Below, piece after piece: positions 4,245 through 38,935 of a DNA stretch of 64,000 nt. The notes beneath the pieces were generated by a model. That model was given only the letters and a program-made list of their open reading frames with translations. It was not told the origin of the DNA and did not search any database. The stretch lies in NCBI GenBank assembly GCA_963798855.1, contig CAWCUU010000001.1, positions 629,689 to 693,688 on the forward strand, read 5' to 3'. The position numbers and the translations under genes are program-made. Source of the stretch: an uncultured Gemmatimonadales bacterium. Its GTDB lineage: Bacteria > Gemmatimonadota > Gemmatimonadetes > Longimicrobiales > RSA9. The first letter of the stretch is position 1. Each line of letters opens with the position of its first letter.

Positions 4245-4896
4245 CGTGCGCGAGCGGGTGATGGAGCGCAATGACGAGCTCGCGACCGAGGTGCGCGGCC
4301 TGCTGGCCCGTCACGACATCACGGCGTTCAACCTCGTCTCCTCGCCGGGCGCGGGGAAGACGCTGCTGCTAGAGCGGACGCTCGCCGCGCTCGGCGATGA
4401 GATCCGCATGGCCGTCGTCAGCGGCGACGTGCAGACGAGCAACGACGCCGAGCGGATCGCGCGTCACACGGACCAGCTGGTGCAGGCGGTCGTCACCGGC
4501 GGCGCATGCCATCTCGACGCACGCCAGATCCTGTCCGCGCTCGAAGCCATCGACCTCGATGCGACGGAACTGCTGTTCATCGAGAACGTCGGCAACCTCG
4601 TCTGCCCCGCCAGCTGGGATCTCGGCGAAGAGTCGAAAATCGTGATCTTCTCCACCACCGAGGGAGAGGACAAGCCGTCGAAGTATCCGAAGATGTTCCG
4701 CGAGTCGCGCTACGTCGTGTTGAACAAGATGGACCTGCTGCCCCACGTCGACTTCGACGTGGACCGCGCCGTCGCCCTGGCACGCGAGGTCAACCCCGAT
4801 CTCGAGTTCTTCTTCACCTCCGCTCGAACGGGTGACGGTCTCGACACGTGGTTCGACTTCCTGCGCGCGCGGCTGCGGCACCCCGTCGCTCCGTGA
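4225..4896 (+). CDS. hypB: Hydrogenase nickel-incorporation GTPase HypB
   Basis: P-loop SSPGAGKT, the ENVGNLVCP motif and NKMDL. Start chosen at the ATG at 4225 (MAVRTIDV...); the track ORF begins further upstream at 4183. No His-rich N-terminal stretch. Confidence 0.92.
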   Translation: MAVRTIDVRERVMERNDELATEVRGLLARHDITAFNLVSSPGAGKTLLLERTLAALGDEIRMAVVSGDVQTSNDAERIARHTDQLVQAVVTGGACHLDARQILSALEAIDLDATELLFIENVGNLVCPASWDLGEESKIVIFSTTEGEDKPSKYPKMFRESRYVVLNKMDLLPHVDFDVDRAVALAREVNPDLEFFFTSARTGDGLDTWFDFLRARLRHPVAP

Positions 4897-7154
4897 GCTC
4901 CACGCTGCCCGTCGCTCCGCCCAGGGGCGCCCTCGAGCTCCACGTTCGGGGCGTCGTTCAGGGCGTCGGCTTCGTCGGTCGCAGCGACGAGCGCCTTCCC
5001 GTCTCGCCCGACGTAGCGCTGTGTCCCGCGTGTGAGGCCGAGCTGTTCGACCCATCGAACCGGCGCTACCGCTACCCGTTCATCACCTGTACGGACTGCG
5101 GACCGCGCTATACCGTGATCGAGGCGATGCCGTACGACCGCGAGCGCACCAGCATGCGCGCGTTCGCCCAATGTCCGACGTGCCTCGCCGAGTATCGCGA
5201 TCCCGGCGACCGGCGCTACCACTCGGAGACGAACTCCTGTCCCGTCTGTGGCCCGAGTCTCGTGCTCGTCACCGCCGAGCGTCGCCGGATCGCCGGGGGC
5301 GACGACGCGATCGCCGCGACCGCACGCCTGCTTCGCACCGGCGCGATCGTCGCCGTGCGTGGGCTCGGCGGCTTCCATCTCGCGGTGGATGCGACCAGCG
5401 AAGTGGCCGTCGCGCGCCTGCGTCTGCTCAAGCGGCGCGAGGCGAAGCCGCTCGCGGTCATGGTGAGGACGCTCGAGGAGGCGGCCCGGCTGGTGACTGT
5501 GACCGAGCCGGACGCGGCGCTGCTCGCCTCTCCGGAGCGACCGATCGTCGTCCTCGGCGCGCTGCCGGACTCGCCACTCGCACCGTCCGTCGCGCCCGGT
5601 CTTGTCGACGTCGGCGTGATGCTGGCCTACACGCCGCTGCACCAGCTGCTCCTCGACGCGACGGCGGGTCCGCTCGTCATGACCAGCGGCAACCTGAGCG
5701 ACGAGCCGATCGCGATCGGTAACGGCGAGGCTATCGAGCGCCTCGCCTCCGTCGCGGACGCGTTCCTGATCCACGATCGCGACATCGTCGCCCGCTACGA
5801 CGACTCCGTGCTGAGGCCCGGCCCGGTCGGGCCGATCGTCCTGCGTCGCGCGCGCGGCTACGCGCCGCTGCCGCTCGACCTGCCGGTCGCGACACCCGAG
5901 CCCCTCGTCGCCGTCGGGCCCCAGCTGAAGAACACGTTTGCGCTGGCGCACGAGCGCAGCGCCTACCTGAGCCAGCACATCGGCGACCTCGAGAGCCTGG
6001 AGACGCTCGCGCACTTCCACGACACGCTCGATCGCCTCCGCATGCTGTTCGACCTGCACCCGCGCGTCGCCGTCCACGATCTACACCCCGGCTACCTCTC
6101 CACGCGCATCGCCGCGGAGCTCGGCGTGGAGCGTACGATCCCCGTCCAGCACCACCACGCGCACATCGCGGCCGTCGCCGCAGAGCACGGCGTCGCCTCG
6201 CCCGTCCTCGGCGTCGCGTTCGACGGCACCGGCTACGGCGACGACGGAAGGATCTGGGGCGCGGAGCTGCTCGTCGCCGACCTGCTCGGATACCGCCGTG
6301 TCGCGCACCTGCGCTACGCGCCTCTGCCAGGTGGCGATCTCGCCGCGCGCCAGCCGTGGCGTGCGGCGCTCGGCTTTCTCTCCCTCGAGCCCGGCACCGC
6401 GCCCGCGTTCGCACGCGCGCTCGATCCCGTCGACGAGGTCGAGCGCGACATCGCGACCGCGCAGATCGACCAGGAGCTGAACGCGCCGCTCGCCTCCTCG
6501 ATGGGCCGCCTCTTCGACGCCGCCGCCGCCGTGCTCGGCCTCCGACACCGCTCGCGCTACGAGGGCCAGGCCGCCATAGAGCTCGAGGCCCTGGCCGCCG
6601 AGCGCCCCGCATTCCCGCTGCCGTTCCCGGTCACGGCCGGCGAAGACGGTCGCCGCATCTTCGATCCGCTGCCGCTGCTCTCCGCCCTCGGCGAAGCCGC
6701 GGCCCGCGGCGACGACCCCCGCGACCTCGCCGCCCGTTTCCACGAGAGCATCGCGGCGACCACGGCCGAGCTGACCGTCGAGCTCTGCGCCGACCATCGC
6801 CTCCACACCGTCGCGCTCGGCGGCGGCGTCTTCCAGAACGCACGCCTCCTCCGCTCCCTGTACCGCCGTCTCCGCGCCGCCGGCCTCCGCGTCCTCCTAC
6901 CGCGCCAGCTCAGCCCCAACGACAGCGCCATCAGCTTCGGCCAGGCAGCGATCGCGGCGGCCATTCTGGCCGCAGGGCGAGGGCGAGGGGACGACCTAGG
7001 TCGAGGTCGAGGGCGAGGGCGAGGGCGAGGGCAAGAGGTAGGGCGCGGGCGCGGGCGAGGGCGAGGGCGCGGGCGAGGGCGAGGGCGAGGGCGAGGGCGA
7101 GGGCGAGGAGGCTCGGGGCTGAATGGCGGAGGGGAAGGCCGTGCGGAAAGATGA
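4893..7154 (+). CDS. hypF: Carbamoyltransferase HypF, with a truncated acylphosphatase domain and a C-terminal Arg-Gly repeat tail
   Basis: GTG at 4893 overlaps the hypB stop (GTGA). Only VRGVVQGVGF of the acylphosphatase domain is present, followed directly by two zinc fingers (CPACEAE...CTDCGPRY, CPTCLAEY...CPVCGPS). YrdC-like (VRGLGGFHLAVDA) and Kae1-like domains follow. The tail GRGRGRG... is encoded by the hexamer repeat at 6975-7118. Confidence 0.92.
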   Translation: MSSTLPVAPPRGALELHVRGVVQGVGFVGRSDERLPVSPDVALCPACEAELFDPSNRRYRYPFITCTDCGPRYTVIEAMPYDRERTSMRAFAQCPTCLAEYRDPGDRRYHSETNSCPVCGPSLVLVTAERRRIAGGDDAIAATARLLRTGAIVAVRGLGGFHLAVDATSEVAVARLRLLKRREAKPLAVMVRTLEEAARLVTVTEPDAALLASPERPIVVLGALPDSPLAPSVAPGLVDVGVMLAYTPLHQLLLDATAGPLVMTSGNLSDEPIAIGNGEAIERLASVADAFLIHDRDIVARYDDSVLRPGPVGPIVLRRARGYAPLPLDLPVATPEPLVAVGPQLKNTFALAHERSAYLSQHIGDLESLETLAHFHDTLDRLRMLFDLHPRVAVHDLHPGYLSTRIAAELGVERTIPVQHHHAHIAAVAAEHGVASPVLGVAFDGTGYGDDGRIWGAELLVADLLGYRRVAHLRYAPLPGGDLAARQPWRAALGFLSLEPGTAPAFARALDPVDEVERDIATAQIDQELNAPLASSMGRLFDAAAAVLGLRHRSRYEGQAAIELEALAAERPAFPLPFPVTAGEDGRRIFDPLPLLSALGEAAARGDDPRDLAARFHESIAATTAELTVELCADHRLHTVALGGGVFQNARLLRSLYRRLRAAGLRVLLPRQLSPNDSAISFGQAAIAAAILAAGRGRGDDLGRGRGRGRGRGQEVGRGRGRGRGRGRGRGRGRGRGRGGSGLNGGGEGRAER
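6975..7118 (+). repeat. Tandem G-tract hexamer repeat (GGGCGA/GGGCGC)n, in-frame in the 3' end of hypF
   Basis: Direct reading: gggcgagggcgagggg...gggcgagggcgagggcgagggcaag...gggcgcgggcgcgggcgagggcgagggcgcgggcgagggcgagggcgagggcgagggcgagggcgagg. More than 15 runs of GGG on the + strand. Confidence 0.9.
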
Positions 7155-7159
7155 CCCGG

Positions 7160-7380
7160 TCGCCCCCCGCCGCGAAGCCGGCGCCCCCCGCCGCGAAGCC
7201 GGCGGCTCCCCGCCGCGAAGCCGGCGGCTCCCCGCCGCGAAGCCGGCGGCTCCCCGCCGCGAAGCCGGCGGCCCCCCGCCGCAGGCGGCCCCGCCGTCAG
7301 GCGGCGCCCCGCCGAAAGGCGGCGCCCGGCCCCTCGCGGCCGCGCCCGGCCGCAAGGCCGCGCCCCGCCTTCAAGGCGGC
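7160..7380 (+). repeat. Tandem array of ~10 GC mini-hairpins (REP-like) immediately after the hypF stop
   Basis: Five copies of CCGCCG-CGAAGC-CGGCGG, then CCGCC-GCA-GGCGG, CCGCC-GTCA-GGCGG, CCGCC-GAAA-GGCGG, GGCC-GCAA-GGCC and CCGCC-TTCAA-GGCGG, separated by short C-rich spacers. Confidence 0.85.
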
Positions 7381-7472
7381 AGTAGGGCCTTTCCCGACCC
7401 TATCCGTAGGATATTCGTGGACAGTCTTGAAGGAGATACCATTATTTTTTCTAAAATCGCGAATATGGCTCT

Positions 7473-7488
7473 TGTGAATCGTTTCACC
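7473..7488 (+). promoter_or_regulatory. CRP/FNR-family-like binding site TGTGA-N6-TCACC in the AT-rich island upstream of the cytochrome cluster
   Basis: cTTGTGAATCGTTTCACCaa read directly. It lies in the only AT-rich stretch (about 7400-7520) for kilobases, ~140 nt upstream of the cytochrome start. Confidence 0.4.
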
Positions 7489-7629
7489 AACCTGTAAAGT
7501 GGAGTCAAACGAGCTGTAAGGACTCCGAGGCACGCCGACCGGCACCCTCTCCGGACGGCGATCGCAGCAGGTAGAGGGAGGGCCGGTGGGGTGGAACAGA
7601 ACCATTATGCCGTTGTGCCGGAGGGATCC

Positions 7630-9099
7630 ATGGGTATGAAAGAGATGCGGAGGCTCGCGAGAGCGACCCCGGCGCTCCTTGTGGCGGCGCTCCTCGCCGG
7701 CTGTCTGGGCGAGAAGGTCGTCTACAAGGACCGGGACCTCTTCACGACGCCTCCGCCGGCGGCGGAGAAGTTCGTCGGCTATACGGATGTTTCGACGAAG
7801 CTGGCGGTCTGCGGGAACTGTCACGTGGACCATCAGGGGAAGTGGCAGGAGACGAAGCACGCGGAAGCGTGGGCCGATCTCGAGGCGAGCGGCCACGCGA
7901 ACGATTCGTGTCGCGCCTGCCACACGGTGAACGGGAACGGCAACGCCGCGGACAACCCGGCGGGCTGGGTTGCCGTGCAGGATGAGCGTTATCAGGACGT
8001 GCAGTGCGAGAGCTGCCACGGTGCCGGGCTCGATCACGTGAGCAACCCCGAGTCGGGTGTGCCGCTCGCCCCGATGTCGGTCGGTCTGGACCTGACGACG
8101 GGGTGTGGGGAGTGCCACAACGGGACGCACCATCCGTTCGTCGAGGAGTGGGCGCAGTCGGCTCACGGCGCGGTGCCGAACCAGGGACACACAGGGGACA
8201 ACCCGTCGTGCCAGGGGTGTCACACGGGTGAGGGGGCGCTCGCGGCGTGGGGTATCGAGACGAACTACCTCGAGAAGGATCAGCTCGGCGAGGGCAACCA
8301 CCTCGCGATCACGTGCGCGATCTGCCACGATCCGCACGAGCTGCATCAGGGCGTGGATCACCAGCTCCGCTTCTCGGTGGAGACGCCGAGCGTGGAGGAG
8401 AACCTGTGCATGAAGTGCCACCACAAGCGCGGCGTGCCGGATCCGACGACGTTCCGTGGGGCGCACTCGCCGGAGGGTCCGGTGCTGCTGGGCGAGGCGG
8501 GGTGGATTCCGCCGGGCACGGTCTTCCCCGGTGGCAAGATCGTGGCGACGCACGGCTCCGAGGCGAATCCGAAGCTGTGTGCCGGCTGCCATGTGAACCG
8601 GTTCGAGGTGACCGATCCGGAGACGGGGTCCTTCGCCTTCCAGGCGACGGGGCACCTGTTCACGGCGATCCCCTGCCTCGATCCGGACACGGGTCTGCCG
8701 ACGACGGGTGACTGCCCGGTCGAGGATCGCAGCTTCGAGGCGTGCACGGCCAGCGGCTGTCACGGCAATCAGGATGTCGCGCGCTCGCTGATGGCGACGG
8801 CGGAGACGCGTATCGATGACCTGGCGAACCAGCTGGACGCGATGCTCGAGCAGCTGCAGCCCGGCTGGAAGACCTGCCGTGCGGCTGCCGGGGGCTGCGG
8901 CCCGTTCGTGATCGACAGCGTCTACACGACCGCCGAGGGCGCCGGGTTCAACTACGACCTGGCCGAGTACCCTGGGTCGGCGATCCACAATCCGTTCCTG
9001 ATGGAGGCGCTGCTGACCGCGAGCATCAAGCAGGTCACGAAGGACTATGGCGTGCCCGCTGGAAACATCGTGCTCGAGAACCTGCTGCAGAGCCACTGA
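7630..9099 (+). CDS. Multihaem c-type cytochrome lipoprotein (8 CxxCH plus one CxxxxCH)
   Basis: Signal peptide with lipobox LLAGC. Haem motifs CGNCH, CRACH, CESCH, CGECH, CQGCH, CAICH, CMKCH and CAGCH, plus CTASGCH. GGAGGG Shine-Dalgarno 4 nt before the ATG at 7630 (ATG at 7636 is also possible; the track ORF starts at GTG 7591). Confidence 0.9.
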   Translation: MGMKEMRRLARATPALLVAALLAGCLGEKVVYKDRDLFTTPPPAAEKFVGYTDVSTKLAVCGNCHVDHQGKWQETKHAEAWADLEASGHANDSCRACHTVNGNGNAADNPAGWVAVQDERYQDVQCESCHGAGLDHVSNPESGVPLAPMSVGLDLTTGCGECHNGTHHPFVEEWAQSAHGAVPNQGHTGDNPSCQGCHTGEGALAAWGIETNYLEKDQLGEGNHLAITCAICHDPHELHQGVDHQLRFSVETPSVEENLCMKCHHKRGVPDPTTFRGAHSPEGPVLLGEAGWIPPGTVFPGGKIVATHGSEANPKLCAGCHVNRFEVTDPETGSFAFQATGHLFTAIPCLDPDTGLPTTGDCPVEDRSFEACTASGCHGNQDVARSLMATAETRIDDLANQLDAMLEQLQPGWKTCRAAAGGCGPFVIDSVYTTAEGAGFNYDLAEYPGSAIHNPFLMEALLTASIKQVTKDYGVPAGNIVLENLLQSH

Positions 9100-9133
9100 C
9101 GGAACGGGATTTCCGGATCTGCGCAGGTGAATC

Positions 9134-10690
9134 GTGAACATCGGGATGAACCTCTTCGCCATGGCCACCGTCGCGTTCGCGGCGGTGGCCATGGCATTCG
9201 TTCGCCGCTCGCCGCGGTCGCCTGACCGTCGGCGTTTCGGCCGCCTGATCCTCGCCGTGCTGCTCGCGGCCGCACCCGCCGCGCTGGCGGGGCAGGGGGT
9301 GCGGGGTCAGGCGCTGACGCTGGCCCGCTACGTCTCCGTACGGCCGATGCGTCCCGACACCGTGGCTCGCGCGAGCGTCACGGAGGACGCGGACGGCAAC
9401 GTCTCCTATCAGGGCGTGCCCGCTACCTGCTTCAGCGAGACGCAGTGCGTCGTGTATCTCGCCGATCCGACCGAGCATTCGCTTTCTCTGAGCCAGGACC
9501 TCAGCGCCACCGCGTGGGGCTTCGGCGTACGCGGGCTGAGCGTGACGGCGCTGCTGCGAGCGCGCGCCGATCTGGGCGGGGACTACACCTGGCCGCGGAG
9601 CGACGACGCGTTCGATGCGATCCTCGCCTACGCCGAGCTCGCGCGTGGCGTCTACCGCTTTCGCGTGGGACGCCAGCAGACGCTGTCGGGTCTCGGCTTC
9701 TCCGGATTCGACGGGATCAGCGCGCTCGTGGACCCGATCCCCGGCCTTCGCATCGAGGCCTACGGCGGACGCAGCCTGGCCCGCGGACTCTCCGAGCCCG
9801 CGAACGAGGCGCTCCAGGGGATCGAGGACTTCGTGCCCGATCGAAGCGCGTATCTCCTGGGAGGCGTCGTGGAGCTGCGACCGGAGCTGCCGGTCGGCGC
9901 CTCCGCGCGGTATCAGCGGGAGATCTGGTCGGACCGTTCCGCGCTGCTTTCGGAGCGCGCATCGTTCGACGCGTGGGTCGAGCTGCCCGCGAACGTGATG
10001 CTGACCGGCAACCTGGACTACGACTTCGGCTTCAGCCGGATCGGCAAGTCCCGCGTCTCGCTGCGCGTGCCGGTGGCGGGACGGCTCGGCGTGGACGCCA
10101 CGTTCCGGCGTTACCTGCCCTATTTCGATCTCTGGACGATCTGGGGCTTCTTCAGCCCGGTCGGCTACAATGAGGCCGAGATCAGCGTGACGTACCGCGT
10201 CTTGCCGGCTCTAGGGGTCTGGGGCTCCGCGGCCTTGCGCGCCTACGAGGACGCGGAGGCGCCCATCGTGCTCGAGCCGCTGCAGGACCATTCGCATCGC
10301 TTCGCACTCGGCACGCGCTGGAGCCCGTCACCCGGCTGGGACGTCGACGCGAGCTATCGGCAGGAGCGCGGCTTCGGCGCGACGCTCTCGAACGGTGAGG
10401 CTTCGCTCCGCTGGTCGCCGCGCGAGCGGACCAGCGTGAGCGCGTACGGCACCGCGTTCCAGCAGATCGAGGAGTTCCGCGTCGGCGAAGGCGCCGTTCT
10501 CGGGGCCGGGCTGTCGGCCACGCTTCCGCTGCCCCGGGGCGCATCGCTCGATGGCGGCGCCTCCCTCTACCGCAACCGGTACACGAACCGGCCCGGTGCG
10601 ACCGACTGGAACCAGACGCGCGGCTGGCTGGGGCTCACGGTGCCGATCGGCAGCGATCCGGGCATGGCGGCCGAGGTGGGCCGGCGATGA
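9134..10690 (+). CDS. Predicted outer-membrane beta-barrel protein (porin-like), no haem motifs
   Basis: Sec-type signal RRRFGRLILAVLLAAAPAALAGQ (the true start may be the ATG at 9191). Many alternating hydrophobic/polar beta-strand-like segments rich in Y/R/G/D, e.g. YRFRVGRQQTLSG, LRIEAYGGRS, DAWVELPANVMLTGNLDYDF, RFALGTRWSP, VDASYRQERGFG, EASLRWSP. The stop overlaps the start of the next gene (ATGA). Confidence 0.55.
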   Translation: MNIGMNLFAMATVAFAAVAMAFVRRSPRSPDRRRFGRLILAVLLAAAPAALAGQGVRGQALTLARYVSVRPMRPDTVARASVTEDADGNVSYQGVPATCFSETQCVVYLADPTEHSLSLSQDLSATAWGFGVRGLSVTALLRARADLGGDYTWPRSDDAFDAILAYAELARGVYRFRVGRQQTLSGLGFSGFDGISALVDPIPGLRIEAYGGRSLARGLSEPANEALQGIEDFVPDRSAYLLGGVVELRPELPVGASARYQREIWSDRSALLSERASFDAWVELPANVMLTGNLDYDFGFSRIGKSRVSLRVPVAGRLGVDATFRRYLPYFDLWTIWGFFSPVGYNEAEISVTYRVLPALGVWGSAALRAYEDAEAPIVLEPLQDHSHRFALGTRWSPSPGWDVDASYRQERGFGATLSNGEASLRWSPRERTSVSAYGTAFQQIEEFRVGEGAVLGAGLSATLPLPRGASLDGGASLYRNRYTNRPGATDWNQTRGWLGLTVPIGSDPGMAAEVGRR

Positions 10691-12207
10691 GACGTCCCAC
10701 GCTGAGCCGGACCGTGCTGCTACGTGGCGCCGCGGCGCTGCTCGCGCTCGCGCTGCTCGCCGGCGCCGCGGTGACGAGTCGCGTGATCGGATTGGACCTC
10801 GATCGGCGGCAGGGCTTCCCGCACGAGCGCCACGCGCGGCTGTTCCCCGTCTGCACCGGCTGCCACGAAGGTATCGAGTCGGGCGATTCGGCGAGCTTCT
10901 TTCCCTCTCCGCAGATGTGTGCGAGCTGCCACGACGGTGAGAATCAGGAGAGGGTCGCGTGGAGCGGACCGGAAGCGCGTCCGAGCAACCTTCGCTTCAC
11001 GCACCCGCGGCACATGGCCGGGCTGCGGGACACGACTCTGCAGTGCCAGTCGTGCCACACCGAGTCCGGGGCCGGCCGGATGGATGTGCGGCGCGTCGTC
11101 GTGGGGCAGTGCCTCTCCTGCCATCAGCACCGCGCGACGAGCCATTACCTGGATGCGAAGTGCGAGACCTGTCACGTGCCCCTGGCCCGGACCGCGTTCT
11201 CGGCGGAGCGGATACTGACACTTCCCGAGCCGTCCGACCACGAGGCGCAGGATTTCCTGACGAAGGGGCACGGGGAGGAGGCCCATTCCGGCACCGCCCG
11301 CTGCGCGACCTGCCACACGCGGGAGAGGTGCGCGAGCTGTCACGTGAACGCGTCGACGAACCAGGCGATCGCGCGAATGCCGGCCGCTGCGCCGGGGCTG
11401 GAGCTGCCCACCTTCCCTGTCCACTACCCGGTGCCGCCGTCGCACACGAAGCCGGACTGGCTGCGCCGTCACGGCGCGAAGGCCGGCGTGGCGGAGTGCA
11501 GTACCTGTCACGCCAGAGAAGACTGCCAGACCTGCCATTGGGAGAATGCGCCCTCCCTGGTTACCGCGTTGCCGTCGAGGGCCCACACGAGCGCCCCCGG
11601 AGTGATGCTGTCCAGGACTCCGCCCGCGAGCCACGCCGCCCCGACCTGGGGCACCGAGCACGGCACGCTGGCCGCCGCGAGCACGGCGAGCTGCACCACG
11701 TGCCACACCCGACTCTTCTGCGCCGATTGCCACGACGCGGCACAGATCGCACAGAATCGGGTCGGCGGCACGGCCGGCGCCTTCGATGCGAGCACGACTC
11801 CGCGGGCCGCGGAGCGCGCCCGGTTCCATTCGCCCGACTTCATGGCGCGCCACGCCTCGGAGGCGTGGGGCCGGCGGCTCGAATGCTCGAACTGCCACCA
11901 GGTCGCGGTCTTCTGTCGGGACTGCCACCAGCAGGAGGGGATGGGCACGGAGGGCCGGCTGGGCGGCGCCTTCCACGACGCGCAGCCGCTCTGGCTGCTG
12001 CGCCACGGGCAGGCTGCACGACAGGGGCTGGAAAGCTGCACGAGCTGTCACAAGCAGCGCGACTGCCTGCAGTGCCACTCGACTCTGGGAGCGTTCAAGG
12101 TCAATCCACACGGCCGGAGCTTCGATCCGGGCCGTGCCCAGAAAAAGAACCCCGTGATATGTTACGCCTGTCACGCAACCGATCCTCTTGCCGGGAGAAC
12201 CCCGTGA
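10687..12207 (+). CDS. 16-haem c-type cytochrome (paired-CxxCH modules), secreted or membrane-anchored
   Basis: 16 CxxCH motifs counted by eye, mostly as doublets such as CATCHTRERCASCH, CSTCHAREDCQTCH, CTTCHTRLFCADCH, CSNCHQVAVFCRDCH and CTSCHKQRDCLQCH. N-terminal hydrophobic signal/anchor LLRGAAALLALALLAGAAV. Confidence 0.92.
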   Translation: MRRPTLSRTVLLRGAAALLALALLAGAAVTSRVIGLDLDRRQGFPHERHARLFPVCTGCHEGIESGDSASFFPSPQMCASCHDGENQERVAWSGPEARPSNLRFTHPRHMAGLRDTTLQCQSCHTESGAGRMDVRRVVVGQCLSCHQHRATSHYLDAKCETCHVPLARTAFSAERILTLPEPSDHEAQDFLTKGHGEEAHSGTARCATCHTRERCASCHVNASTNQAIARMPAAAPGLELPTFPVHYPVPPSHTKPDWLRRHGAKAGVAECSTCHAREDCQTCHWENAPSLVTALPSRAHTSAPGVMLSRTPPASHAAPTWGTEHGTLAAASTASCTTCHTRLFCADCHDAAQIAQNRVGGTAGAFDASTTPRAAERARFHSPDFMARHASEAWGRRLECSNCHQVAVFCRDCHQQEGMGTEGRLGGAFHDAQPLWLLRHGQAARQGLESCTSCHKQRDCLQCHSTLGAFKVNPHGRSFDPGRAQKKNPVICYACHATDPLAGRTP

Positions 12208-12593
12208 TCGTGTTACGCCGTACCGCCATTGCGGTGGGCCTCGTCGCCATGCTCGCCGCCTGTGGCGGCGATAGCTCCGAGAACGCACCCACCCTGGGGA
12301 CCTCCACGGCCGGTGGCCCGAATCCGGCGCGCGAGCAGATACCGCCGGAGGTCGGGTTGCAGCTCGACAGCGGCAACCTGGCATTCCGCGACCACGAGTA
12401 CGAGGCGGCCCTCCGCTACTATGAAAAGGCGAACGAGCTCAGCCCGCACATCACGGCGACCTGGTTCGGAATCTCCATGGCAAAGCGCGCCCTCGGCGAT
12501 ACGGCGGCGGCCGACTCGGCGATGATGATGGCGCAGCGTCTCGCCCCCGGGATGAATCTGGCTCACCCGACGGCGCCGGACAGCGGGATGTGA
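12204..12593 (+). CDS. Small TPR-containing lipoprotein
   Basis: GTG at 12204 overlaps the cytochrome stop (GTGA). Lipobox VAMLAACGG. TPR-like GNLAFRDHEYEAALRYYEKANELSPHITATWFGISMAKRALGD. The track shows it only as the tail of ORF 10959..12593. Confidence 0.6.
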   Translation: MIVLRRTAIAVGLVAMLAACGGDSSENAPTLGTSTAGGPNPAREQIPPEVGLQLDSGNLAFRDHEYEAALRYYEKANELSPHITATWFGISMAKRALGDTAAADSAMMMAQRLAPGMNLAHPTAPDSGM

Positions 12594-12615
12594 GAGGGAG
12601 CTGATCCCTTCGACT

Positions 12616-13071
12616 CTAGCTCGCTTCGCGGCCGGTCGACTCCTGCACGGCGATGCGGAAGATGATGTTGCGGTGCGGCGTCGGGTCCTTCTCGCCGAGC
12701 GCATCCGGTATCAGCTTGCGGAGCCGCTCGACCGCACTCTGCCACTTCTCGAGGTCGGAGGGACGCTCGTCCGGATCGAGAACGTAGAAAGCGCCGTGGA
12801 CCACGACACTGCGCCAGCGGAACAGCGCCTCCACTTCGTCCACCTCGAACGCGACCCATCGGTTGTGGCTCAGGAGCTCGGTCTTCTCGCCGGGCGAGGT
12901 TCGACCGTAGATCCAGCCGTCGGCGTAGACGTAATGGACGGGCACGATGCCGATCCGGGTGCCGTGCCCGAAGGCCAGCCGGCCGACGTGGTTGCGGCGA
13001 AGGACTTCCTCGATCTCCTCCGCTCCCAGCTCCCGCACGTCGGCGGCGGAATCGGAAGGCTGAGCGCTCAT
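12616..13071 (-). CDS. Pyridoxamine 5'-phosphate oxidase-like FMN-binding protein
   Basis: Start at the ATG at 13071, preceded by GGAGGCC. LRRNHVGRLAFG...PVHYVYADGWIYGRTSPGEKTELL...VAFEVDEV...WRSVVVHG is the typical PNPOx-like split-barrel pattern. Confidence 0.7.
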   Translation of the reverse strand: MSAQPSDSAADVRELGAEEIEEVLRRNHVGRLAFGHGTRIGIVPVHYVYADGWIYGRTSPGEKTELLSHNRWVAFEVDEVEALFRWRSVVVHGAFYVLDPDERPSDLEKWQSAVERLRKLIPDALGEKDPTPHRNIIFRIAVQESTGREAS

Positions 13072-13244
13072 ATGGCCTCCTCTGTGTTCGGCTCCAACAT
13101 GCCGCCGCCGAGGCGACGCCGGCGTCGGGGAGAGCGCGTGACCTGCGTCCGGCCTCGCCCCACACCGCGCGCGGCGACCCGACAGCTCGCGGGCCGCGCC
13201 GCATTCCCGCTGACACGATAAGGCGAGCGTGTCCGGGAGGCACG

Positions 13245-15125
13245 ATGCGCACCATGCCAGCTCAGCAAGCCCGTGATCGCGCCCCGCGTCGCCTCGCATT
13301 CCTGAGGCCCGCGGGGACGCTGCTCTTCATCGCTGCCGGCGGCGTCCTGTACCTCTTCGTGGCCGCGCCCCGCGCTGCCGACCTCGTCTGGCTGATCGGT
13401 CTCCTCCTGACCGGAGTACCGGTGGTCGTCGGGACGCTGCTCGGCGCGCTGCGCGGACGCTTCGCGGCCGACCTGGTGGCGAGCCTGGCGGTGGCGACGG
13501 CGATCGTATTGAACGAGCCGCTCGCCGGTCTCGTGATCGTTCTGATGCAGACCGGCGGCGAGGCCCTCGAGCGGTACGCGGAGGGACGCGCCTCGGCGGC
13601 CGTTCGCGAGCTCGAGGCCGCGGCGCCGCGCGGCGCGCACCGGCGGGTCGGCAGCCGCATCGCGGACATCTCGGCGGAGGAGATCCGAGTCGGCGATGAC
13701 CTCCTCGTGCGCCCCGGCGAGCTGATCCCCGCAGACGGCATGGTCGTGGAGGGGCGATCGCACGTGGATGTCTCCCGCCTGACGGGCGAGCCGCTGCCGG
13801 TCGTGGCGGAGGCCGGCACGCCGCTCATGAGCGGAAGCGTGAACGGGGAAGGGCCGATCGTCGTGCGTGCCCGCGCCGTGGCCGGCGAGAGCCAGTATGC
13901 ACGCATCGTCGAGCTTGTGCGGAACGCGCAGGCGACCCGCGCCCCCATTCACCGGCTGGCCGACCGCTACGCCGTGGTGTTCACCCCGATCACGCTCGCC
14001 GTTTGCGTCGCCGCTTATCTCGCGACCCGCGACCCGGTTCGAATCCTGGCGGTCCTCGTCGTCGCGACGCCGTGCCCGCTGATCCTCGCCACGCCCGTCG
14101 CGATCATCGGCGGCATCGGCAGCGCCGCCCGACGCCAGATCATCTTCCGCACCGGTGCAGCGCTCGAGCAGCTCGCGCGCGTGCGCGTGGCCGTGTTCGA
14201 CAAGACCGGGACGTTGACGGTCGGCATTCCCCGCGTGCGCCACGTGCTCGCCCTGCCGCCGTTCTCGGAGGCCGAGCTGCTGCGCCTGTCCGGAGCCGTG
14301 GAGCAGGGTTCCAGTCACGTGCTCGCCCGAAGCGTGGTGGAGGCGGCCCAGCTGACCGCCCCGGAGCTGCCGCCCGCCCGCAATGTGCGCGAGGATCCCG
14401 GTCGCGGAATACGGGGCGAAGTGGAGGGCCGGAGGGTCTCCATTGGTTCCCTCGGCTTCGTCGCCGCCGATGCACCCGCCGCCACGGAGCGCTTCCAGCG
14501 CGAAGGGGCGGACGGCGATGGCCTCCGCGCGTTCATCGTCGTGGACCGCCGCCCCGCCGGCGTGCTCGAGTTCGCCGACGCCGTGCGCCCCGGGCTCGAC
14601 CACTTCTTCGAGGCACTCTCCCGTCTCGGTGTCCACCGGACGCTGTTGCTCTCGGGCGATCACGAGATCGAGACGCGGGCCGTGGCCGACCGCCTCGGTA
14701 TCCGCGAGATGCGCGGTGACCTTCTACCTGAAGACAAGGTTCAGATCGTCCGCTCCCTCGTCGCCGCTGGAGACGCGGTCCTGATGGTCGGCGACGGCAC
14801 CAACGACGCGCCCGCGCTCAGCGCCGCCACCGTGGGCATCGCGCTCGCCGGGCGCGGCGGCGGCATCACCGCGGAGGCCGCCGACGCCGTCGTCCTCGTC
14901 GACGACCTGACCCGGATCGTCGATGCCGCCCGCATCAGCCGTCGCACCATGCGCATCGCACGCGAGAGCATCTGGGTCGGCCTCGGCCTCAGCGGCCTGG
15001 CGATGGGCTTCGCTGCGGCCGGGATGATCGCGCCCACCATCGGCGCGCTACTCCAGGAGGCAATCGACGTGGCCGTCATCCTGAACGCCCTGCGCGCCAG
15101 CCGCCGCCTCCGCCCCGCACTCTAA
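13245..15125 (+). CDS. P1B-type heavy-metal ATPase without an N-terminal metal-binding domain; transmembrane motif TPC(P)
   Basis: DKTGTLT phosphorylation site, TGEP, GDGTNDAPAL, VATPCPLILATP in place of the usual CPC helix. 626 aa. Confidence 0.92.
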   Translation: MRTMPAQQARDRAPRRLAFLRPAGTLLFIAAGGVLYLFVAAPRAADLVWLIGLLLTGVPVVVGTLLGALRGRFAADLVASLAVATAIVLNEPLAGLVIVLMQTGGEALERYAEGRASAAVRELEAAAPRGAHRRVGSRIADISAEEIRVGDDLLVRPGELIPADGMVVEGRSHVDVSRLTGEPLPVVAEAGTPLMSGSVNGEGPIVVRARAVAGESQYARIVELVRNAQATRAPIHRLADRYAVVFTPITLAVCVAAYLATRDPVRILAVLVVATPCPLILATPVAIIGGIGSAARRQIIFRTGAALEQLARVRVAVFDKTGTLTVGIPRVRHVLALPPFSEAELLRLSGAVEQGSSHVLARSVVEAAQLTAPELPPARNVREDPGRGIRGEVEGRRVSIGSLGFVAADAPAATERFQREGADGDGLRAFIVVDRRPAGVLEFADAVRPGLDHFFEALSRLGVHRTLLLSGDHEIETRAVADRLGIREMRGDLLPEDKVQIVRSLVAAGDAVLMVGDGTNDAPALSAATVGIALAGRGGGITAEAADAVVLVDDLTRIVDAARISRRTMRIARESIWVGLGLSGLAMGFAAAGMIAPTIGALLQEAIDVAVILNALRASRRLRPAL

Positions 15126-15129
15126 CCCC

Positions 15130-15335
15130 CGCCCAGCCGAAGGCCGGCGCTCCCGGCGCAGCCGCGCCCGGCCGCAAGGCCGCGCCCCGGCGAAGCCGGC
15201 CCCGGCCGCAAGGCCGCGCCCCGGCGAAGCCGGCCCCGGCCGCAAGGCCGCGCCCGGCGAAAGCCGCGCCCGGCGAGAGCCGCGCCCGGCCGTAAAGGCC
15301 GCGCCCGGCCGCAGTGGCCTGCGGCCGCTACGGCG
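15130..15335 (+). repeat. Tandem array of ~12 GC mini-hairpins (same family as 7160-7380) immediately after the ATPase stop
   Basis: GGCC-GCAA-GGCC alternates with CCGGC-GAA-GCCGG (three rounds), then CGGC-GAAA-GCCG, CGGC-GAGA-GCCG, GGCC-GTAAA-GGCC and GGCC-GCAGT-GGCC. GCGCCC spacers. Confidence 0.85.
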
Positions 15336-15364
15336 CGTATTCTGCCCATCGCCATGGTTTGCCT

Positions 15365-16336
15365 ATGAAGCTGAAGGGCGGAGTCCTTCACTGGCTCAAC
15401 CGCCTCGTCGGCGTCGCACTCGCCGTCTTCGCGGTCTGGGCGGCGTGGCGTTTCCCGTGGGGAGAGACGCGCGCGGCGCTGGAGCAGGCCACCTACTGGC
15501 CACTGGCGATCGCGGTCATCACGAACCTGCTCGGTCTCGTGGCGCGTAGCTGGGCGTGGCACCTACTGCTCAAGCCGGCGGCGCCGAACCGGCTCAAGAT
15601 CGCGCTGGAAGCCTCCCTGATCGGCAACGCGCTCGCGAGCGTCTCCATCGCGGTCGCGGGTGAGGGATCGCGCGCGAAGTTCATCTCGCGACGCGATGAC
15701 GTGCCCATGGGCCTGGCGGTCGCGGCGATCGTCTGGAGCCGCGTCCTGGAGGGCGTCGCGCTCGTCCTGCTGTTGCTGCTCGCACCGCCGTTCCTGCACC
15801 TGCCGCCTCAGCTCCGCTGGATCCACCTGGCTGGTGTCATCGTCGCTCTCGTCGCGCTCATCGTGCTCGCCCTGCGGCAGCGCTTCAGCCTGTCACGCTA
15901 CGCCCCCGGCTTCCTGCGCGCTCCTGTCGAGACGATGAAGAAGATCCCGTTCGGCGGCCCTCGTCTCGTCGGGCCGCTCGTGTTCTCGCTCATGCACTGG
16001 ATCACCCAGGTCGCGACGTACCAGCTCACCTTCCTCGCTCTGGGCGTGCGGCTTCCTCTCGCCGGCGCCTTCGTCGCGGTCGTCGTCGCGAACCTCGCCT
16101 GGGCCTTCCGCTTCACGCCGGGCAACGTCGGCGTGATGCAGGGCTCGATCGCGCTCGCTCTGCTCCCGTTCGGGATTGCGACGACCAGCTCCGTTCTCGC
16201 CGGCATTCTGCTGCAGGCGCTGCAGGTGATTCCCGTCATCGCGCTGGCCGCGTTCTTCGCGGGAATCCGCGGGCTCGGCCGCCTCAAGTCGGAGGAGGAG
16301 GAGGAGTCGGCCGGGCAGGCTGAGCTGGAGACGTGA
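15365..16336 (+). CDS. Integral membrane protein, UPF0104 / lysylphosphatidylglycerol-synthase-TM-like family
   Basis: Start taken at MKLKGGVL (ATG 15365). About eight hydrophobic helices and a family-like N-terminus (WRFPWGETRAALEQATYWPLAIAV..ARSWAWHLLL). Assignment by resemblance only. Confidence 0.55.
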   Translation: MKLKGGVLHWLNRLVGVALAVFAVWAAWRFPWGETRAALEQATYWPLAIAVITNLLGLVARSWAWHLLLKPAAPNRLKIALEASLIGNALASVSIAVAGEGSRAKFISRRDDVPMGLAVAAIVWSRVLEGVALVLLLLLAPPFLHLPPQLRWIHLAGVIVALVALIVLALRQRFSLSRYAPGFLRAPVETMKKIPFGGPRLVGPLVFSLMHWITQVATYQLTFLALGVRLPLAGAFVAVVVANLAWAFRFTPGNVGVMQGSIALALLPFGIATTSSVLAGILLQALQVIPVIALAAFFAGIRGLGRLKSEEEEESAGQAELET

Positions 16337-16525
16337 TCGGGCCGGACAAGCCTCGGGCGGCGGCAGCGGCCGAGGCCGCCAGCCCCCGCATCTCCTCTCG
16401 CTGTCCGGCGGCGGCGCCAATGCGCTCTCGTCGGCGGCAGCCGTGCGGCTGACCCGCCCCTTGCGATCACCCGGCTGCCCCGAAAGATTCCCCCGCCTCG
16501 ACCCCCAAAGAGGAAGGCCTGCTAC

Positions 16526-21894: not shown

Positions 21895-22106
21895 CCGTCA
21901 AAGCGATGCTGTGGGGTTTCACCGGGCTCGGGATCGTGGCACTGCTCCTCGATCTCTTCGTGCACCGCCACGTGATCGACCCGTGGGAGCGACTCTTCGG
22001 CTTCTACGCGCTGTTCGGCTTCATTGGCGTGACCGCGCTCGTCTACGGCGCGAAGCTCCTGCGCAGGATCGTGATGCGCGACGAGGACTACTACGATGTG
22101 GATTGA
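21891..22106 (+). CDS. Small two-TM membrane protein embedded in the mrp cluster
   Basis: ATG at 21891 overlaps the upstream stop (ATGA). 71 aa, MTVKAMLWGFTGLGIVALLLDLF...FYALFGFIGVTALVYGAKLL. Translationally coupled on both sides. No family recognised. Confidence 0.5.
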   Translation: MTVKAMLWGFTGLGIVALLLDLFVHRHVIDPWERLFGFYALFGFIGVTALVYGAKLLRRIVMRDEDYYDVD

Positions 22107-23799
22107 CGCGCCGCCGTTCCTGATCTTCTTCGTCGGCGCCGCCTTCGCCGCCGTGCTGCGCGGGAAGGCGCGCGCGGCCGTCATGCTGCTCGTCCCGGTC
22201 CTCGGCGCGTTGAACCTGATCGGGGCGGCCTCCGGCGTGCACCTCCAGGTCGGCTTCTTCGGCTACCGGCTCGAGCCGTTCCGCGTCGACCGCCTCAGCC
22301 TGCTGTTCGCCTTCCTGTTCCACATCGCCGCGTTCATCGGCTTCCTCTATTCGCTCCACCTCTGCCGTGAGGAGAAGGCGACGCTCCAGCACACGGCAGG
22401 AATGATGTACGCCGGCAGCGCGGTCGGCGCCGTATTCGCCGGCGACCTGCTCACGTTCTTCGTGTTCTGGGAGCTGCTGAGCGTCACGTCCGTGTTCCTG
22501 ATCTGGGCACGCGGGACGCACCGCTCGATCCGCGCCGGTGGCCGTTACCTCATCGTGCAGGTCGTCGCGGGAGTCGTGTTCCTGGCGGGAGTGCTCGTCT
22601 ACTACAACGACACCGGCAGCCTCGAGTTCGGGCACATGACGCTGAGCGGGCTCGGCCCCTGGCTGATGTTCGTCGCGATTGGCGCGAAGTGCGGTTTTCC
22701 GCTGCTGCACAACTGGCTGACCGACGCCTACCCCGAGGCGACCGTCACCGGCACGTTCTTCCTCAGCGCCTTCACGACCAAGGTCGGCATCTACGCTCTC
22801 GCCCGCGGCTTCGCGGGCACCGAGATGCTGATCTACATCGGCGCGGTGATGACCGCGTTCCCGATCTTCTACGCCGTGATCGAGAACGACCTGCGCCGCG
22901 TGCTCGGCTACAGCATGATCAACCAGATCGGCTTCATGGTCGTCGGCATCGGCATCGGCACGGCGCTGTCCGTCGACGGCGCCGTCGCCCACGCCTTCAA
23001 CGAGGTCATCTTCAAGGGCCTGCTCTTCATGTCGATGGGCGCGGTGCTCTATCGCACCGGTACCATCAATGGCTCGGACCTCGGAGGGCTCTACAAGAGC
23101 ATGCCGTTCAGCGCCGCGATGTCCATGGTCGGCGCCGCGTCGATCTCCGCCTTTCCGCTCTTCAGCGGCTTCGTCAGCAAGTCGATGATCATGTCCGCGG
23201 CCGCCGAGCACGGCTACCACTGGATCTGGCTCGTGCTGCTCTTCGCCTCCGCGGGCGTCGTCGAGCACGCCGGCATCAAGATCCCGTTCTTCGGATTCTT
23301 CGGTCACGACTCGGGGATTCGCACGGAGGAGGCGCCGCTGAACATGCGCGTCGCGATGGCCATCGCGGCTGCCCTGTGTATCGCCGTCGGCGTGCTGCCG
23401 CAGACCTTTTACTCGTTGTTGCCGTTCCACGTGACCTACACCCCCTACGACACCGGTCACGTCGTCGAGCAGATCCAGCTGTTGTTCTTCTCTATGCTCG
23501 CCGTCTTCTGGCTCATGCGACTCGGCCTCTACCCCGCCGAGCGACACGCCGTCAACCTCGACAGCGACTGGTTCTACCGCCGCCTCGCGCCGAGGCTGGT
23601 GCGCGGCATCGGCGGCGCCGCGCTCGCGCTCGACCGTCGAGTCCGCTCCGTCGCGACGCGGCTCGTCCGCTCCGTCGTCGGCAGCGCGTCGCGCCACCAC
23701 GGCCCCCAGGCCGCCCTCGCCTCCACCTGGCCGGCCGGAAGCATGGTCATGTGGGTGACGATCCTGCTCGCGGCGTACCTCGTGTTCTACCTGTTCTAG
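22096..23799 (+). CDS. Antiporter-like pump subunit, MrpD/MrpA/NuoL-N family (copy 3)
   Basis: 567 aa. FVFWELLSVTSVFLIW, LLHNWLTDAYPEATVTGTFFLSAFTTKVGIY, GYSMINQIGFMVVG, HAFNEVIFKGLLFMSMG. Confidence 0.85.
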   Translation: MWIDAPPFLIFFVGAAFAAVLRGKARAAVMLLVPVLGALNLIGAASGVHLQVGFFGYRLEPFRVDRLSLLFAFLFHIAAFIGFLYSLHLCREEKATLQHTAGMMYAGSAVGAVFAGDLLTFFVFWELLSVTSVFLIWARGTHRSIRAGGRYLIVQVVAGVVFLAGVLVYYNDTGSLEFGHMTLSGLGPWLMFVAIGAKCGFPLLHNWLTDAYPEATVTGTFFLSAFTTKVGIYALARGFAGTEMLIYIGAVMTAFPIFYAVIENDLRRVLGYSMINQIGFMVVGIGIGTALSVDGAVAHAFNEVIFKGLLFMSMGAVLYRTGTINGSDLGGLYKSMPFSAAMSMVGAASISAFPLFSGFVSKSMIMSAAAEHGYHWIWLVLLFASAGVVEHAGIKIPFFGFFGHDSGIRTEEAPLNMRVAMAIAAALCIAVGVLPQTFYSLLPFHVTYTPYDTGHVVEQIQLLFFSMLAVFWLMRLGLYPAERHAVNLDSDWFYRRLAPRLVRGIGGAALALDRRVRSVATRLVRSVVGSASRHHGPQAALASTWPAGSMVMWVTILLAAYLVFYLF

Positions 23800-24075
23800 C
23801 AGGTCGCTGAAGAATGGAAGCGAGCCGCGTTGCGAGCGCCACGGGGCCGGACGCGAGGCGGCGCGACGACGCAATGCCAGGGCGCATCTCGGAGGAGCGG
23901 CAACGACGCAGACGACCCCGTGCCGCCACAACCCGAAGGGAGCAGGGGGGTTGCGGCCTCACTCATTGTTGCTCGTCGTCGCCATAGCGCTGCTATGACT
24001 CCTCCTCGCGCCTTGATTGAGGCTCCGCAAGCCCCCTGCTCGCGGCCGCACTCCCATTTTTCAGCGACCTGCTAG
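23796..24075. mobile_element. MITE-like / long structured inverted-repeat element flanked by CTAG
   Basis: CTAG-CAGGTCGCTGAAgAATGG... at 23796 and ...CCATTtTTCAGCGACCTG-CTAG ending at 24075. Perfect 16-nt inverted match including CTAG, extendable imperfectly to ~30 nt. A second nested long stem pairs 23940-23965 with 24014-24041. The left CTAG contains the TAG stop of the last mrp gene. No ORF with coding character inside. Confidence 0.5.
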
Positions 24076-27513: not shown

Positions 27514-27642
27514 AGGGGATGAGGCGATAACAGGAGATGCAGGGGATGACCGGCGTCGAAGCCGGCCGCGTAGCAATGGAGCAACTCGAAACCCATAGGC
27601 CAAGGTAGTCACCTCCATCTCCTGCATCCCCTGATCGCCTCA
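27514..27642. repeat. Imperfect ~35-bp inverted repeat built of CAGGRGATG units, flanking a ~60-nt core; left arm recurs at 47068-47122
   Basis: GGGGATGAGGCGATAACAGGAGATGCAGGGGATGAC ... GTCACCTCCATCTCCTGCATCCCCTGATCGCCTCA read directly. The core contains the CCGGCGTCGAAGCCGG hairpin. Confidence 0.6.
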
Positions 27643-27724
27643 ATGGAGCCGGCGGCGCCTTGGGGCAGACGTGGGTCGACGACCGCGAGGCGCCCACTCC
27701 GGCGGTAATCACCTCCGCAAACAG

Positions 27725-27766
27725 AAACGCGCAGCCCCATCGCCGAAGCGACGGAGCTGCGCGTTT
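27725..27766 (-). terminator. Rho-independent terminator downstream of the SusD-like gene (possibly bidirectional)
   Basis: Perfect 11-bp stem AAACGCGCAGC / GCTGCGCGTTT. On the minus strand it is followed by TTTCTGTTTG. Confidence 0.6.
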
Positions 27767-27789
27767 CGAGACGCCCCCGAGCTAGCCGC

Positions 27790-38810: not shown

Positions 38811-38912
38811 CGCCCTTGCCCCCTGACCCCTTCCCCGCCCGCGACCCTCCCCTATGCCCCTCGTCCCTCCCCTATCCCCTCCTCGCCCTAGCCCTTGCCC
38901 TCGCCCTAGCCC
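38811..38912 (-). repeat. G-tract-rich block (sense strand of the flanking minus-strand genes), related to the GGGCGA repeats at 6975-7118
   Basis: Minus-strand reading: GGGCGAGGGCAAGGGCTAGGGCGAGGAGGGGATAGGGGAGGGACGAGGGGCATAGGGGAGGGTCGCGGGCGGGGAAGGGGTCAGGGGGCAAGGGCG. More than 12 runs of at least 3 G. Confidence 0.85.
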
Positions 38913-38935
38913 TGCGCGCCGCTCCGCGGCGCGCC

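Follow-up and report, generated by a model that had tools for sequence, protein, structure and literature searches.

We analysed a 64,000-nt stretch of DNA from an uncultured Gemmatimonadales bacterium (assembly GCA_963798855.1, contig CAWCUU010000001.1, positions 629,689–693,688 of the forward strand; hereafter the window, to whose first letter unlabelled coordinates refer) and found in it two intergenic arrays of very short G/C hairpins, one following the hypF gene (array 1, 7162–7380, + strand) and the other following a heavy-metal P-type ATPase gene (array 2, 15130–15335, +), together with a degenerate array in reversed orientation inside an amino-acid permease gene (42036–42165, −). These arrays are untagged, tandemly amplified 3'-end hairpins akin to repetitive extragenic palindromic (REP) sequences, in a phylum for which the literature searched describes none; on the features tested, they do not belong to the classical system formed by REPs and their REP-associated tyrosine transposases (RAYTs). 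The explanation that we favour, to which we give an even chance of being right, is that they constitute an untagged REP-like stem-loop family of 3'-end hairpins, amplified by slippage and acting as a barrier at transcript ends. The anatomy of the arrays, their excess over chance, their kinship within and between genomes, their position at gene 3' ends and their strand asymmetry were observed directly, and from these we infer how the arrays may have originated and acted.

The excess was measured on chains of non-overlapping perfect hairpins with stems of at least 5 bp, loops of 3–6 nt and gaps of no more than 12 nt. The longest chains in the window, whose GC content is ~69%, consist of 11 hairpins (array 1) and six hairpins (array 2), and the next best has three. 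In 100 shuffles that preserved the window's dinucleotides no chain exceeded five, a length reached in four of them; when the arrays' own composition was shuffled 500 times, a chain of at least six appeared twice and a chain of 11 never. Strings of hairpins are thus far above the shuffle expectation, and 954 kb of other, mostly high-GC DNA yielded just one further locus with a chain of six, in a relative. Single hairpins with the stems named in the initial annotation occur outside the blocks at ~1.0–1.6 times the shuffle expectation, without concentration in arrays. That annotation had also proposed looking for such stems at gene 3' ends; in the window single hairpins are not concentrated at gene ends, only strings are. 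The anomaly is the strings, not the individual palindromes.

Anatomy and strand asymmetry of the arrays

The unit of both arrays consists of a C-rich spacer of 2–6 nt and a perfect G/C hairpin of 11–18 nt with a stem of 4–6 bp; the spacers read CC, CGC, CGCC, CTCC or CCCC (2–4 nt). Most hairpins have loops, mostly of 3–4 nt, with G first, A last and a closing C-G pair (GAA, GCA, GAAA, GAGA, GCAA, GTCA and GTAAA). They had been described as GNRA-like, and the G..A character holds, but they are not strictly GNRA and are better described as GNA or GNNA closed by C-G. There are at least six different stem sequences (CCGCCG, CCGCC, CGGCC, CCGGC, CGGC and GGCCGCAG), and all of them are perfectly complementary, so that the units differ by compensatory changes. 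The notion of conserved stems with variable loops accordingly needs amending: loops and spacers do vary, but the stems vary too, and the features conserved most strongly are the type of loop (G..A with a closing C-G) and the spacer's richness in C. With stems of the CCGCC/GGCGG type, the register is ambiguous on complementarity alone, since pairing each 3' arm with the following unit's 5' arm, so that the spacer becomes the loop, is equally complementary. A CRISPR-like reading of the arrays was excluded by the spacers of 2–4 nt.

Most hairpins of the two arrays also appear, by sequence, to contain a mini-hairpin motif in which a loop of GNA or GNNA, containing a sheared G-A pair, is closed by two G-C pairs. 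Its forms in the arrays are GCGAAGC (×7), GCGAAAGC, GCGAGAGC, CCGAAAGG, CCGCAAGG (×4), CCGCAGG and GCGCAGC; array 2 contains GCGAAGC, GCGAAAGC and GCGAGAGC. The corresponding DNA motifs, GCGNAGC and GCGNNAGC, melt near 70–76 °C as DNA and far lower as RNA, r(GCGAAAGC) melting at 39 °C (PMC13037366).

Array 1 is made up of 11 chained perfect hairpins. The ten palindromes previously listed for it are all present, and one more, CGGCC-CCTCGC-GGCCG at 7327, had been overlooked. Its first part (7162–7282) was resolved by Tandem Repeats Finder (TRF) into 5.5 copies of a 22-nt unit with 97% matches, the unit being a C-rich spacer followed by CCGCCGCGAAGCCGGCGG, with GCGAAGC in each. This part includes the five copies of CCGCCG-CGAAGC-CGGCGG (7168–7271), the first of which has one mismatch. 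The six nucleotides CGAAGC had been taken as the loop of this 18-nt unit; its natural core is instead GC-GAA-GC with one bulged C. The remaining part (7276–7379; TRF unit of ~18 nt, 6.3 copies, 72% matches) comprises six perfect hairpins with spacers CC, CGC and CGCC and loops GCA, GTCA, GAAA, CCTCGC, GCAA and T(TCA)A; besides the hairpin at 7327, these are CCGCC-GCA-GGCGG (7276), CCGCC-GTCA-GGCGG (7291), CCGCC-GAAA-GGCGG (7309), CGGCC-GCAA-GGCCG (7347) and CCGCC-TTCAA-GGCGG (7365). Because a 97%-identical part and a 72%-identical part stand side by side, array 1 appears to hold units of two ages, which indicates ongoing gain of units.

Array 2, the sister array that had been noted after the ATPase gene, repeats about three times a 34-nt double-hairpin unit (CGGCC-GCAA-GGCCG plus CCGGC-GAA-GCCGG) and continues with further hairpins, including CGGC-GAAA-GCCG, CGGC-GAGA-GCCG and CGGCC-GTAAA-GGCCG. 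TRF assigned it 5.4 copies of a 34-nt unit (15130–15313). It has at least six chained perfect hairpins, or 13 when 4-bp stems are counted, and closes with a 22-nt hairpin with a 9-bp stem (15306–15327).

All units of the arrays run head-to-tail with one polarity (A>T, C>G and G..A loops). Counted on the + strand, in each case the sense strand for the gene upstream, there are 19 A, 8 T, 115 C and 79 G in the 221 nt of array 1 and 24 A, 5 T, 101 C and 80 G in the 210 nt of array 2, so that the C-rich spacers and the G..A loops lie on the sense strand. The block in the permease gene (40885–42354, +) is real and reversed, as had been proposed, though degenerate: its hairpins (CCGGC-GAAG-GCCGG, CGGC-GAA-GCCG, CGCGTGC-GCA-GCACGCG and CGTCC-GCA-GGACG) are read on the − strand, and the skew on the + strand (G>C, T>A) is the opposite of that of arrays 1 and 2. 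It encodes a Gly/Ala/Arg-rich stretch which, in an alignment of this APC-family permease, falls in a length-variable loop before the last transmembrane helix (489 aa here versus 439–484 aa in the homologues). In the opposite orientation, the sense-strand structure would not be presented inside the gene.

This asymmetry bears on a reading in which the arrays would be Rho-loading platforms, their periodic C-rich single-stranded spacers between compact hairpins making up a Rho-dependent terminator at operon ends. The layout would resemble that of rutA-boxB-rutB in phage lambda tR1, in which a hairpin clamps two C-rich segments together. The sense-strand excess of C over G (skew +0.14 and +0.11), the YC dinucleotides in every spacer (CC, CGC, CTCC, CGCC), the lack of a canonical U-tract in the operon-end arrays and the reversal of the sole in-gene copy, which is hence G-rich in mRNA, would all fit such a function. 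However, rut sites are ~80 nt long, C-rich, typically G-poor and unstructured, whereas the arrays have 36–38% G (79/221 and 80/210 nt) and are almost fully paired; spacers of 2–4 nt are very short, and other 3' tandem repeats in this genome are G-rich on the sense strand. We regard Rho loading as a decidedly improbable explanation of the arrays.

Kinship within the window and among relatives

An exact 26-mer, GCGCCCGGCCGCAAGGCCGCGCCCCG (7343–7368 in array 1), is common to arrays 1 and 2; its inner 21-mer, CCCGGCCGCAAGGCCGCGCCC, was matched exactly by search, the extension to 26 nt being read from the sequences; they also align over ~55 nt at 71% identity. The best HypF matches come from metagenome-assembled genomes of Gemmatimonadota, Longimicrobiales or Gemmatimonadales, at no more than 71% identity. 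In the syntenic relatives (loci L019/L142 and L020/L143), HypF is 71% identical and the ATPase 74% and 69% identical. The shared gene order runs from the V-ATPase through the NiFe hydrogenase small and large subunits, cytB, hycI, hypA, hypB, hypF, hypC, hypD and hypE to three genes of a cytochrome operon, a reverse-strand pyridoxamine-oxidase-like gene, the P-type ATPase gene and a gene with a lysyl-phosphatidylglycerol synthase transmembrane-region domain (PF03706).

One of these relatives carries an array of its own (L020, 4590–4815), located after the last V-ATPase gene (V-ATPase D) and before the hydrogenase operon. Short C-rich repeats open this array, six hairpins with TGCC spacers between them come next, and CTTCAAGGGTTTCCCGAC is its end; it aligns with the 3' half of array 1 over two units (~45 nt) and the end motif CTTCAAGG..TTTCCCGAC. 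The two loci are non-orthologous. At the site of the L020 array, L019 has one long hairpin followed by GGCTTTCCC (4790–4833). At the site of array 2, where L142 and L143 have ~100 nt, a hairpin and GGCTTTCCC follow soon after the ATPase stop in L142 (11857–11890). In a closer relative, L141, whose ATPase is 85% identical, an array of CCGCC-GAA-GGCGG units, which differ from those of array 2, stands directly after the same ATPase stop as array 2. The short-read (Logan) contig of L141 ends inside this array, 53 nt after the ATPase stop (5910–5963), which suggests that such arrays break short-read assemblies. An assembly artefact as the source of the arrays was ruled out by the related arrays in independent assemblies (L020, L141).

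Taken together, three array loci were counted in the 64-kb window (two extragenic and one in coding sequence) and one array in 33 kb of one relative; there were none in 32 kb of another relative, nor in 67 kb covering three more distant Gemmatimonadota hyp loci. Between close relatives, arrays come and go. Given the shared 26-mer, the L020 alignment, the L141 array and the single hairpin or nothing found in more distant relatives, the arrays, as judged by sequence comparison, are a real, fast-evolving repeat family restricted to a narrow clade, and not local noise. The proposal of a distinct family built from strings of very short hairpins is borne out by complementarity kept across at least six stems, the exact 26-mer and the cross-genome alignment.

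The 21-mer CCCGGCCGCAAGGCCGCGCCC gave 18 single matches in unrelated taxa of a genome collection, all coding or due to chance and none in arrays. A two-hairpin pattern matched at least 120 metagenome loci, almost all of them coding or due to chance, a pattern too permissive to sample the family. In viral contigs neither unit dimer was matched. A search of Rfam 15 at gathering thresholds gave no match anywhere in the window, nor did one of 6900–7650 at E ≤ 1. Vague similarity was seen only in two metagenome contigs (L024, 590–780; L107, 2420–2600), where a C-rich (CCCCGCCCCGCCTCCGG)n repeat right after a stop codon closes with a pair of CCGCC-TCC-GGCGG hairpins; this may be a distant analogue of the arrays.

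The recurrence of units at several loci raises the question of mobility. The initial annotation had placed the arrays in the context of REPs, bacterial interspersed mosaic elements (BIMEs) and RAYTs, and under such a reading they would be classical REPs or BIMEs spread by a RAYT (TnpA-REP) tyrosine transposase that recognizes a single-stranded hairpin. Identical or similar units do lie at three loci within 35 kb and at a non-orthologous site in a second genome, one copy sits in a coding sequence in the opposite orientation, and both tandem REP clusters and REPs with 5-bp stems are known (PMC3733652). There are also candidate tags: GTAG (7383–7386) lies 2 nt past the last hairpin of array 1, and CTAC (15329–15332) just past that of array 2. 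However, both tetranucleotides are within chance, and the units lack a conserved flanking GTAG or CGTC. REPs are 20–50-nt imperfect palindromes with a conserved GTAG (or CGTC) tag that occur in REP/inverted-REP pairs and are associated with RAYTs (PMC8266576, PMC3733652), whereas the units described here measure 11–18 nt, with just the last hairpin of array 2 (22 nt) in the REP range, and run head-to-tail with no alternation of REPs and inverted REPs (PMC8266576). No isolated single copies of a unit were detected in the window at up to three mismatches, and there is no Y1 or other transposase among its ~47 predicted proteins. This framing is therefore not retained, and we consider spread by a RAYT quite unlikely.

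Gene 3' ends and the origin of the arrays

All intergenic arrays lie at the 3' ends of genes or operons: between hypF and the cytochrome operon, between the ATPase gene and the next gene and, in L020, between V-ATPase D and the hydrogenase operon. Both intergenic arrays of the window begin 4–8 nt past a stop codon. Array 1 does follow a hypF stop, as had been noted, the TGA at 7152–7154; this is, however, a secondary stop, as HypF homology to relatives ends near 6944–6975, with none beyond residue 684. The hypF open reading frame (carbamoyltransferase HypF; 4848–7154, +) has Pfam matches to HypF_C_2, Sua5, HypF_C and zf-HYPF and none to Acylphosphatase. In a BLASTP alignment with P0001 (71% identity), residues 10–684 (start 4893) cover residues 87–755 with a gap across the acylphosphatase domain, so that this HypF is without ~70 residues, most of that N-terminal domain. 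Where the ancestral hypF stop would be expected there begins an (AGGGCG)x22 hexamer array (6974–7108, +; TRF period 6, 22.5 copies), which adds 69 in-frame codons to hypF and gives it a Gly/Arg/Glu (GRG/GEG) tail with no counterpart in homologues; it fits the canonical G3N3 quadruplex motif on the sense strand. None of hypC, hypD and hypE was found in the window by tBLASTn; in L019 (10001–15066) and L020 (10001–15051) they follow hypF. Decay of the hyp cluster is one possibility here, a second copy at another place in the genome another.

The junction thus consists, in order, of the end of HypF homology, (AGGGCG)x22, ~50 nt of unique sequence, array 1, the short U-tract-like end motif GGCCTTTCCC(GAC) (7386–7395, +), an AT-rich spacer with a promoter-like match to the sigma-70 consensus (7418–7445, +) and the multihaem cytochrome operon (gene 7591/7636–9099; Pfam cytochrome matches). 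The motif at 7386 recurs with the terminal hairpins of three further operon ends, all in relatives (L019, 4825; L142, 11880; L020, 4820). The ATPase gene upstream of array 2 (13245–15125, +; Pfam E1-E2_ATPase and Hydrolase) encodes a product 100% identical to P0121. Only ~30 nt separate the end of array 2 from the ATG of the next gene at 15365, so that the two genes may be co-transcribed with array 2 between them. A conserved ATTCTGCCC/TTCTGCC motif 15–25 nt upstream of the start of the PF03706 gene (window, 15340–15352; L142, 11935–11947; L143, ~11955–11965) may be a 5' untranslated region or promoter element. A coding reading of arrays 1 and 2 was rejected: the overlapping open reading frames at 6996–7355 (−), 7123–7497 (+) and 7297–9192 (−) are artefacts of GC-rich sequence.

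Under the favoured explanation, an operon-end hairpin right after a stop codon would have been multiplied head-to-tail by slipped-strand replication, and units would have been exchanged between loci. Transcription of the upstream operon would run on into the array, whose units would each fold into a hairpin of their own on emerging, and the resulting string of 6–11 stable stems, ending in a weak U-tract (GGCCUUUCCC), would pause or terminate RNA polymerase, block 3'-to-5' exonucleases and insulate the upstream operon from the next promoter. Array 2 would set a differential stability between two adjacent genes. If arrays expand from a terminator, relatives that lack them should have one hairpin with GGCTTTCCC at these places, as L019 and L142 do. 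The arrays probably mark or protect transcript ends.

Several results weigh against this explanation, beginning with its functional part, the transcript-end barrier, which we infer in its entirety. A scan of 6800–16500 for terminators (at least five T in the 8 nt after a hairpin) returned nothing in either array, the only run being TTT, in GGCCTTTCCC, and this genome does use U-tract terminators, as a SusD-like gene has a canonical intrinsic one (27724–27767, −; 20-bp stem and U-rich tail). On the sense strand, the minimum free energy of whole arrays was not significantly better than that of shuffled sequence (z = −1.0, +1.1 and −0.6), and per-hairpin nearest-neighbour energies were the same for sense and antisense with RNA and DNA parameters alike; the energy models therefore cannot tell which strand or molecule is relevant. 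The evidence on orientation comes from about three independent intergenic arrays, each preceded by a + strand gene on the window's C-rich strand, so that the polarities of transcription and replication are inseparable. Template-switch correction of quasi-palindromes can keep stems perfect in the absence of selection. The extra stability of C-G-closed GAA and GCA triloops is a property of DNA and is much reduced in RNA (PMC13037366), which points to an origin at the DNA level. Finally, as tandem repeats without hairpins also begin at stop codons, both here and in relatives, a general mutational tendency may suffice.

Such other repeats at gene ends are varied. The cytochrome oxidase subunit I gene (50605–52290, −) is followed, 5 nt past its stop, by a 9-nt tandem repeat (CAGCCTGAT, ~11 copies; 50503–50600) that has no hairpin potential. 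A 13/26-nt tandem repeat (GTCAGCGCCTGCCTTCAGCGCCTGTA, 4.5 copies; 44649–44791) overlaps the stop of an M28 peptidase/TFR-like gene (44776–46791, −) and lies between convergent genes. Right after the stop of the gene at 38936–40189 (−) comes a 9-bp hairpin with a GGA loop (38914–38934), followed in the − strand sense by a G-rich hexamer-like array (AGGGCT/AGGGCG...; 38837–38913) resembling the repeat of the hypF tail. Nested inverted repeats (27520–27642) adjoin the terminator of the SusD-like gene. Exactly on the TAG stop of the gene at 22096–23799 starts a 280-nt element resembling a miniature inverted-repeat transposable element (23796–24075), with 25-nt terminal inverted repeats (CTAGCAGGTCGCTGAAGAATGGAAG) and an inner 17-nt inverted repeat. 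In relatives, tandem repeats extend from stop codons between convergent genes (L142, 20689–20791; L143, 20753–21042), with units of 26 nt (G-rich, ×4), CTGAGG (×6), GAACGGCGG (×7.8, at 100% identity) and GCCTCA (×9.7). These examples suggest a clade-wide tendency for minisatellites to lie at gene 3' ends.

The main rival is a neutral account, possible in our view though doubtful, which would make the arrays a by-product: unusually stable single-stranded DNA hairpins of the GCGAAGC type would drive slippage, adding units, and template-switch repair, keeping stems perfect, and arrays with no function of their own would pile up at sites that put up with them, namely the interval from a stop codon to the next promoter or a floppy loop of a protein. 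The loops do match the DNA mini-hairpin motif (GCGNAGC/GCGNNAGC/CCGAAGG; PMC13037366), the 97%-identical block of 5.5 copies speaks for recent slippage, and one copy lies within a variable permease loop. Unrelated repeats without hairpins adjoin stop codons at 44649–44791, 50503–50600, 38837–38913 and 6974–7108 and in L142 (20689–20791) and L143 (20753–21042). The gain and loss of arrays between close relatives, the lack of a strand preference in energy models and the whole-array folding, no better than shuffled, also fit this account. On the other hand, strand polarity relative to the upstream gene is identical in all intergenic arrays, and in the diverged units the spacers drift whereas perfect stems and G..A loops persist. 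A conserved end module with a two-unit segment of ~45 nt, found at non-orthologous loci of genomes whose HypF proteins are only 71% identical, is also hard to explain without constraint or active copying.

The arrays might also act as nucleic-acid structures in their own right, as C-tract platforms or DNA-level barriers and not as simple terminator hairpins, which we regard as unlikely. In the platform form, a hairpin-clamped row of short C-tracts may be shown to a hexameric factor such as Rho. In the DNA-level form, the sense strand could form mini-hairpins of the type described by Hirao, and the G4–6 runs of the template strand, spaced by hairpin-forming loops, could form quadruplex-duplex hybrids. 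Together with adjacent G-rich hexamers such as (AGGGCG)22, these would be programmed barriers or fragile sites driving rearrangements at operon ends, for example the loss of hypCDE here.

If, as the favoured explanation has it, the arrays define 3' ends, they would provide a sequence signature for operon boundaries in a high-GC phylum with scarce U-tract terminators, and a natural use in bulk of the 'extraordinarily stable mini-hairpin' motif. Transcript ending is almost uncharted in the Gemmatimonadota, which abound in soil. If the arrays are merely products of slippage, they would be a clean case of the birth and death of hairpin-driven minisatellites in bacteria. In either case, they create spurious extensions of open reading frames and low-complexity protein tails (the HypF tail and the permease loop), which annotators should recognize.

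Comparison with known systems

The literature searched held no report of repeats in Gemmatimonadota, and the arrays were compared with systems from other bacteria. Mycobacterial interspersed repetitive units (MIRUs) are intergenic minisatellites, or variable-number tandem repeats, of 40–100 bp whose units are not self-complementary. Like them, the arrays are intergenic tandem repeats in operons with copy numbers that differ between close relatives; unlike them, they have self-complementary units. With the REPs and BIMEs of Enterobacteria and Pseudomonas the arrays share short GC-rich extragenic palindromes just after stop codons or between the genes of an operon, sometimes tandem and occasionally intragenic, and proposed roles in the protection of mRNA 3' ends and attenuation of transcription. 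They differ in having perfect units of 11–18 nt that are untagged and strictly head-to-tail with spacers of 2–4 nt, and no RAYT within 64 kb.

Intrinsic terminators, including the tandem and U-tract-poor forms of high-GC genomes (WebGeSTer classes, PMC3013805), likewise place GC hairpins directly after stop codons at operon ends, and the UUUCCC motif at the array end also occurs at single terminal hairpins in relatives. In the arrays, however, no U-tract of five or more follows any hairpin, there are 6–11 hairpins versus two in a tandem terminator, and the units are related between loci. The mini-hairpin DNA motif of Hirao and co-workers (PMC13037366), in the forms GCGAAGC, GCGAAAGC, GCGAGAGC, CCGAAAGG, CCGCAAGG, CCGCAGG and CCGAAGG, tips most array hairpins, but it is known from single sites (phage origins, ssiA, promoters) and is not known as tandem arrays at gene ends. 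Finally, the untagged REP-like families of M. tuberculosis, D. radiodurans, Bordetella, Brucella and cyanobacteria (cited in PMC3733652) are, so far as that source describes them, also short stem-loops that have no tag, are lineage-specific and are mobilized in an unknown way; the families covered there are mainly dispersed as singletons or dimers, whereas here long head-to-tail strings were found and no singletons.

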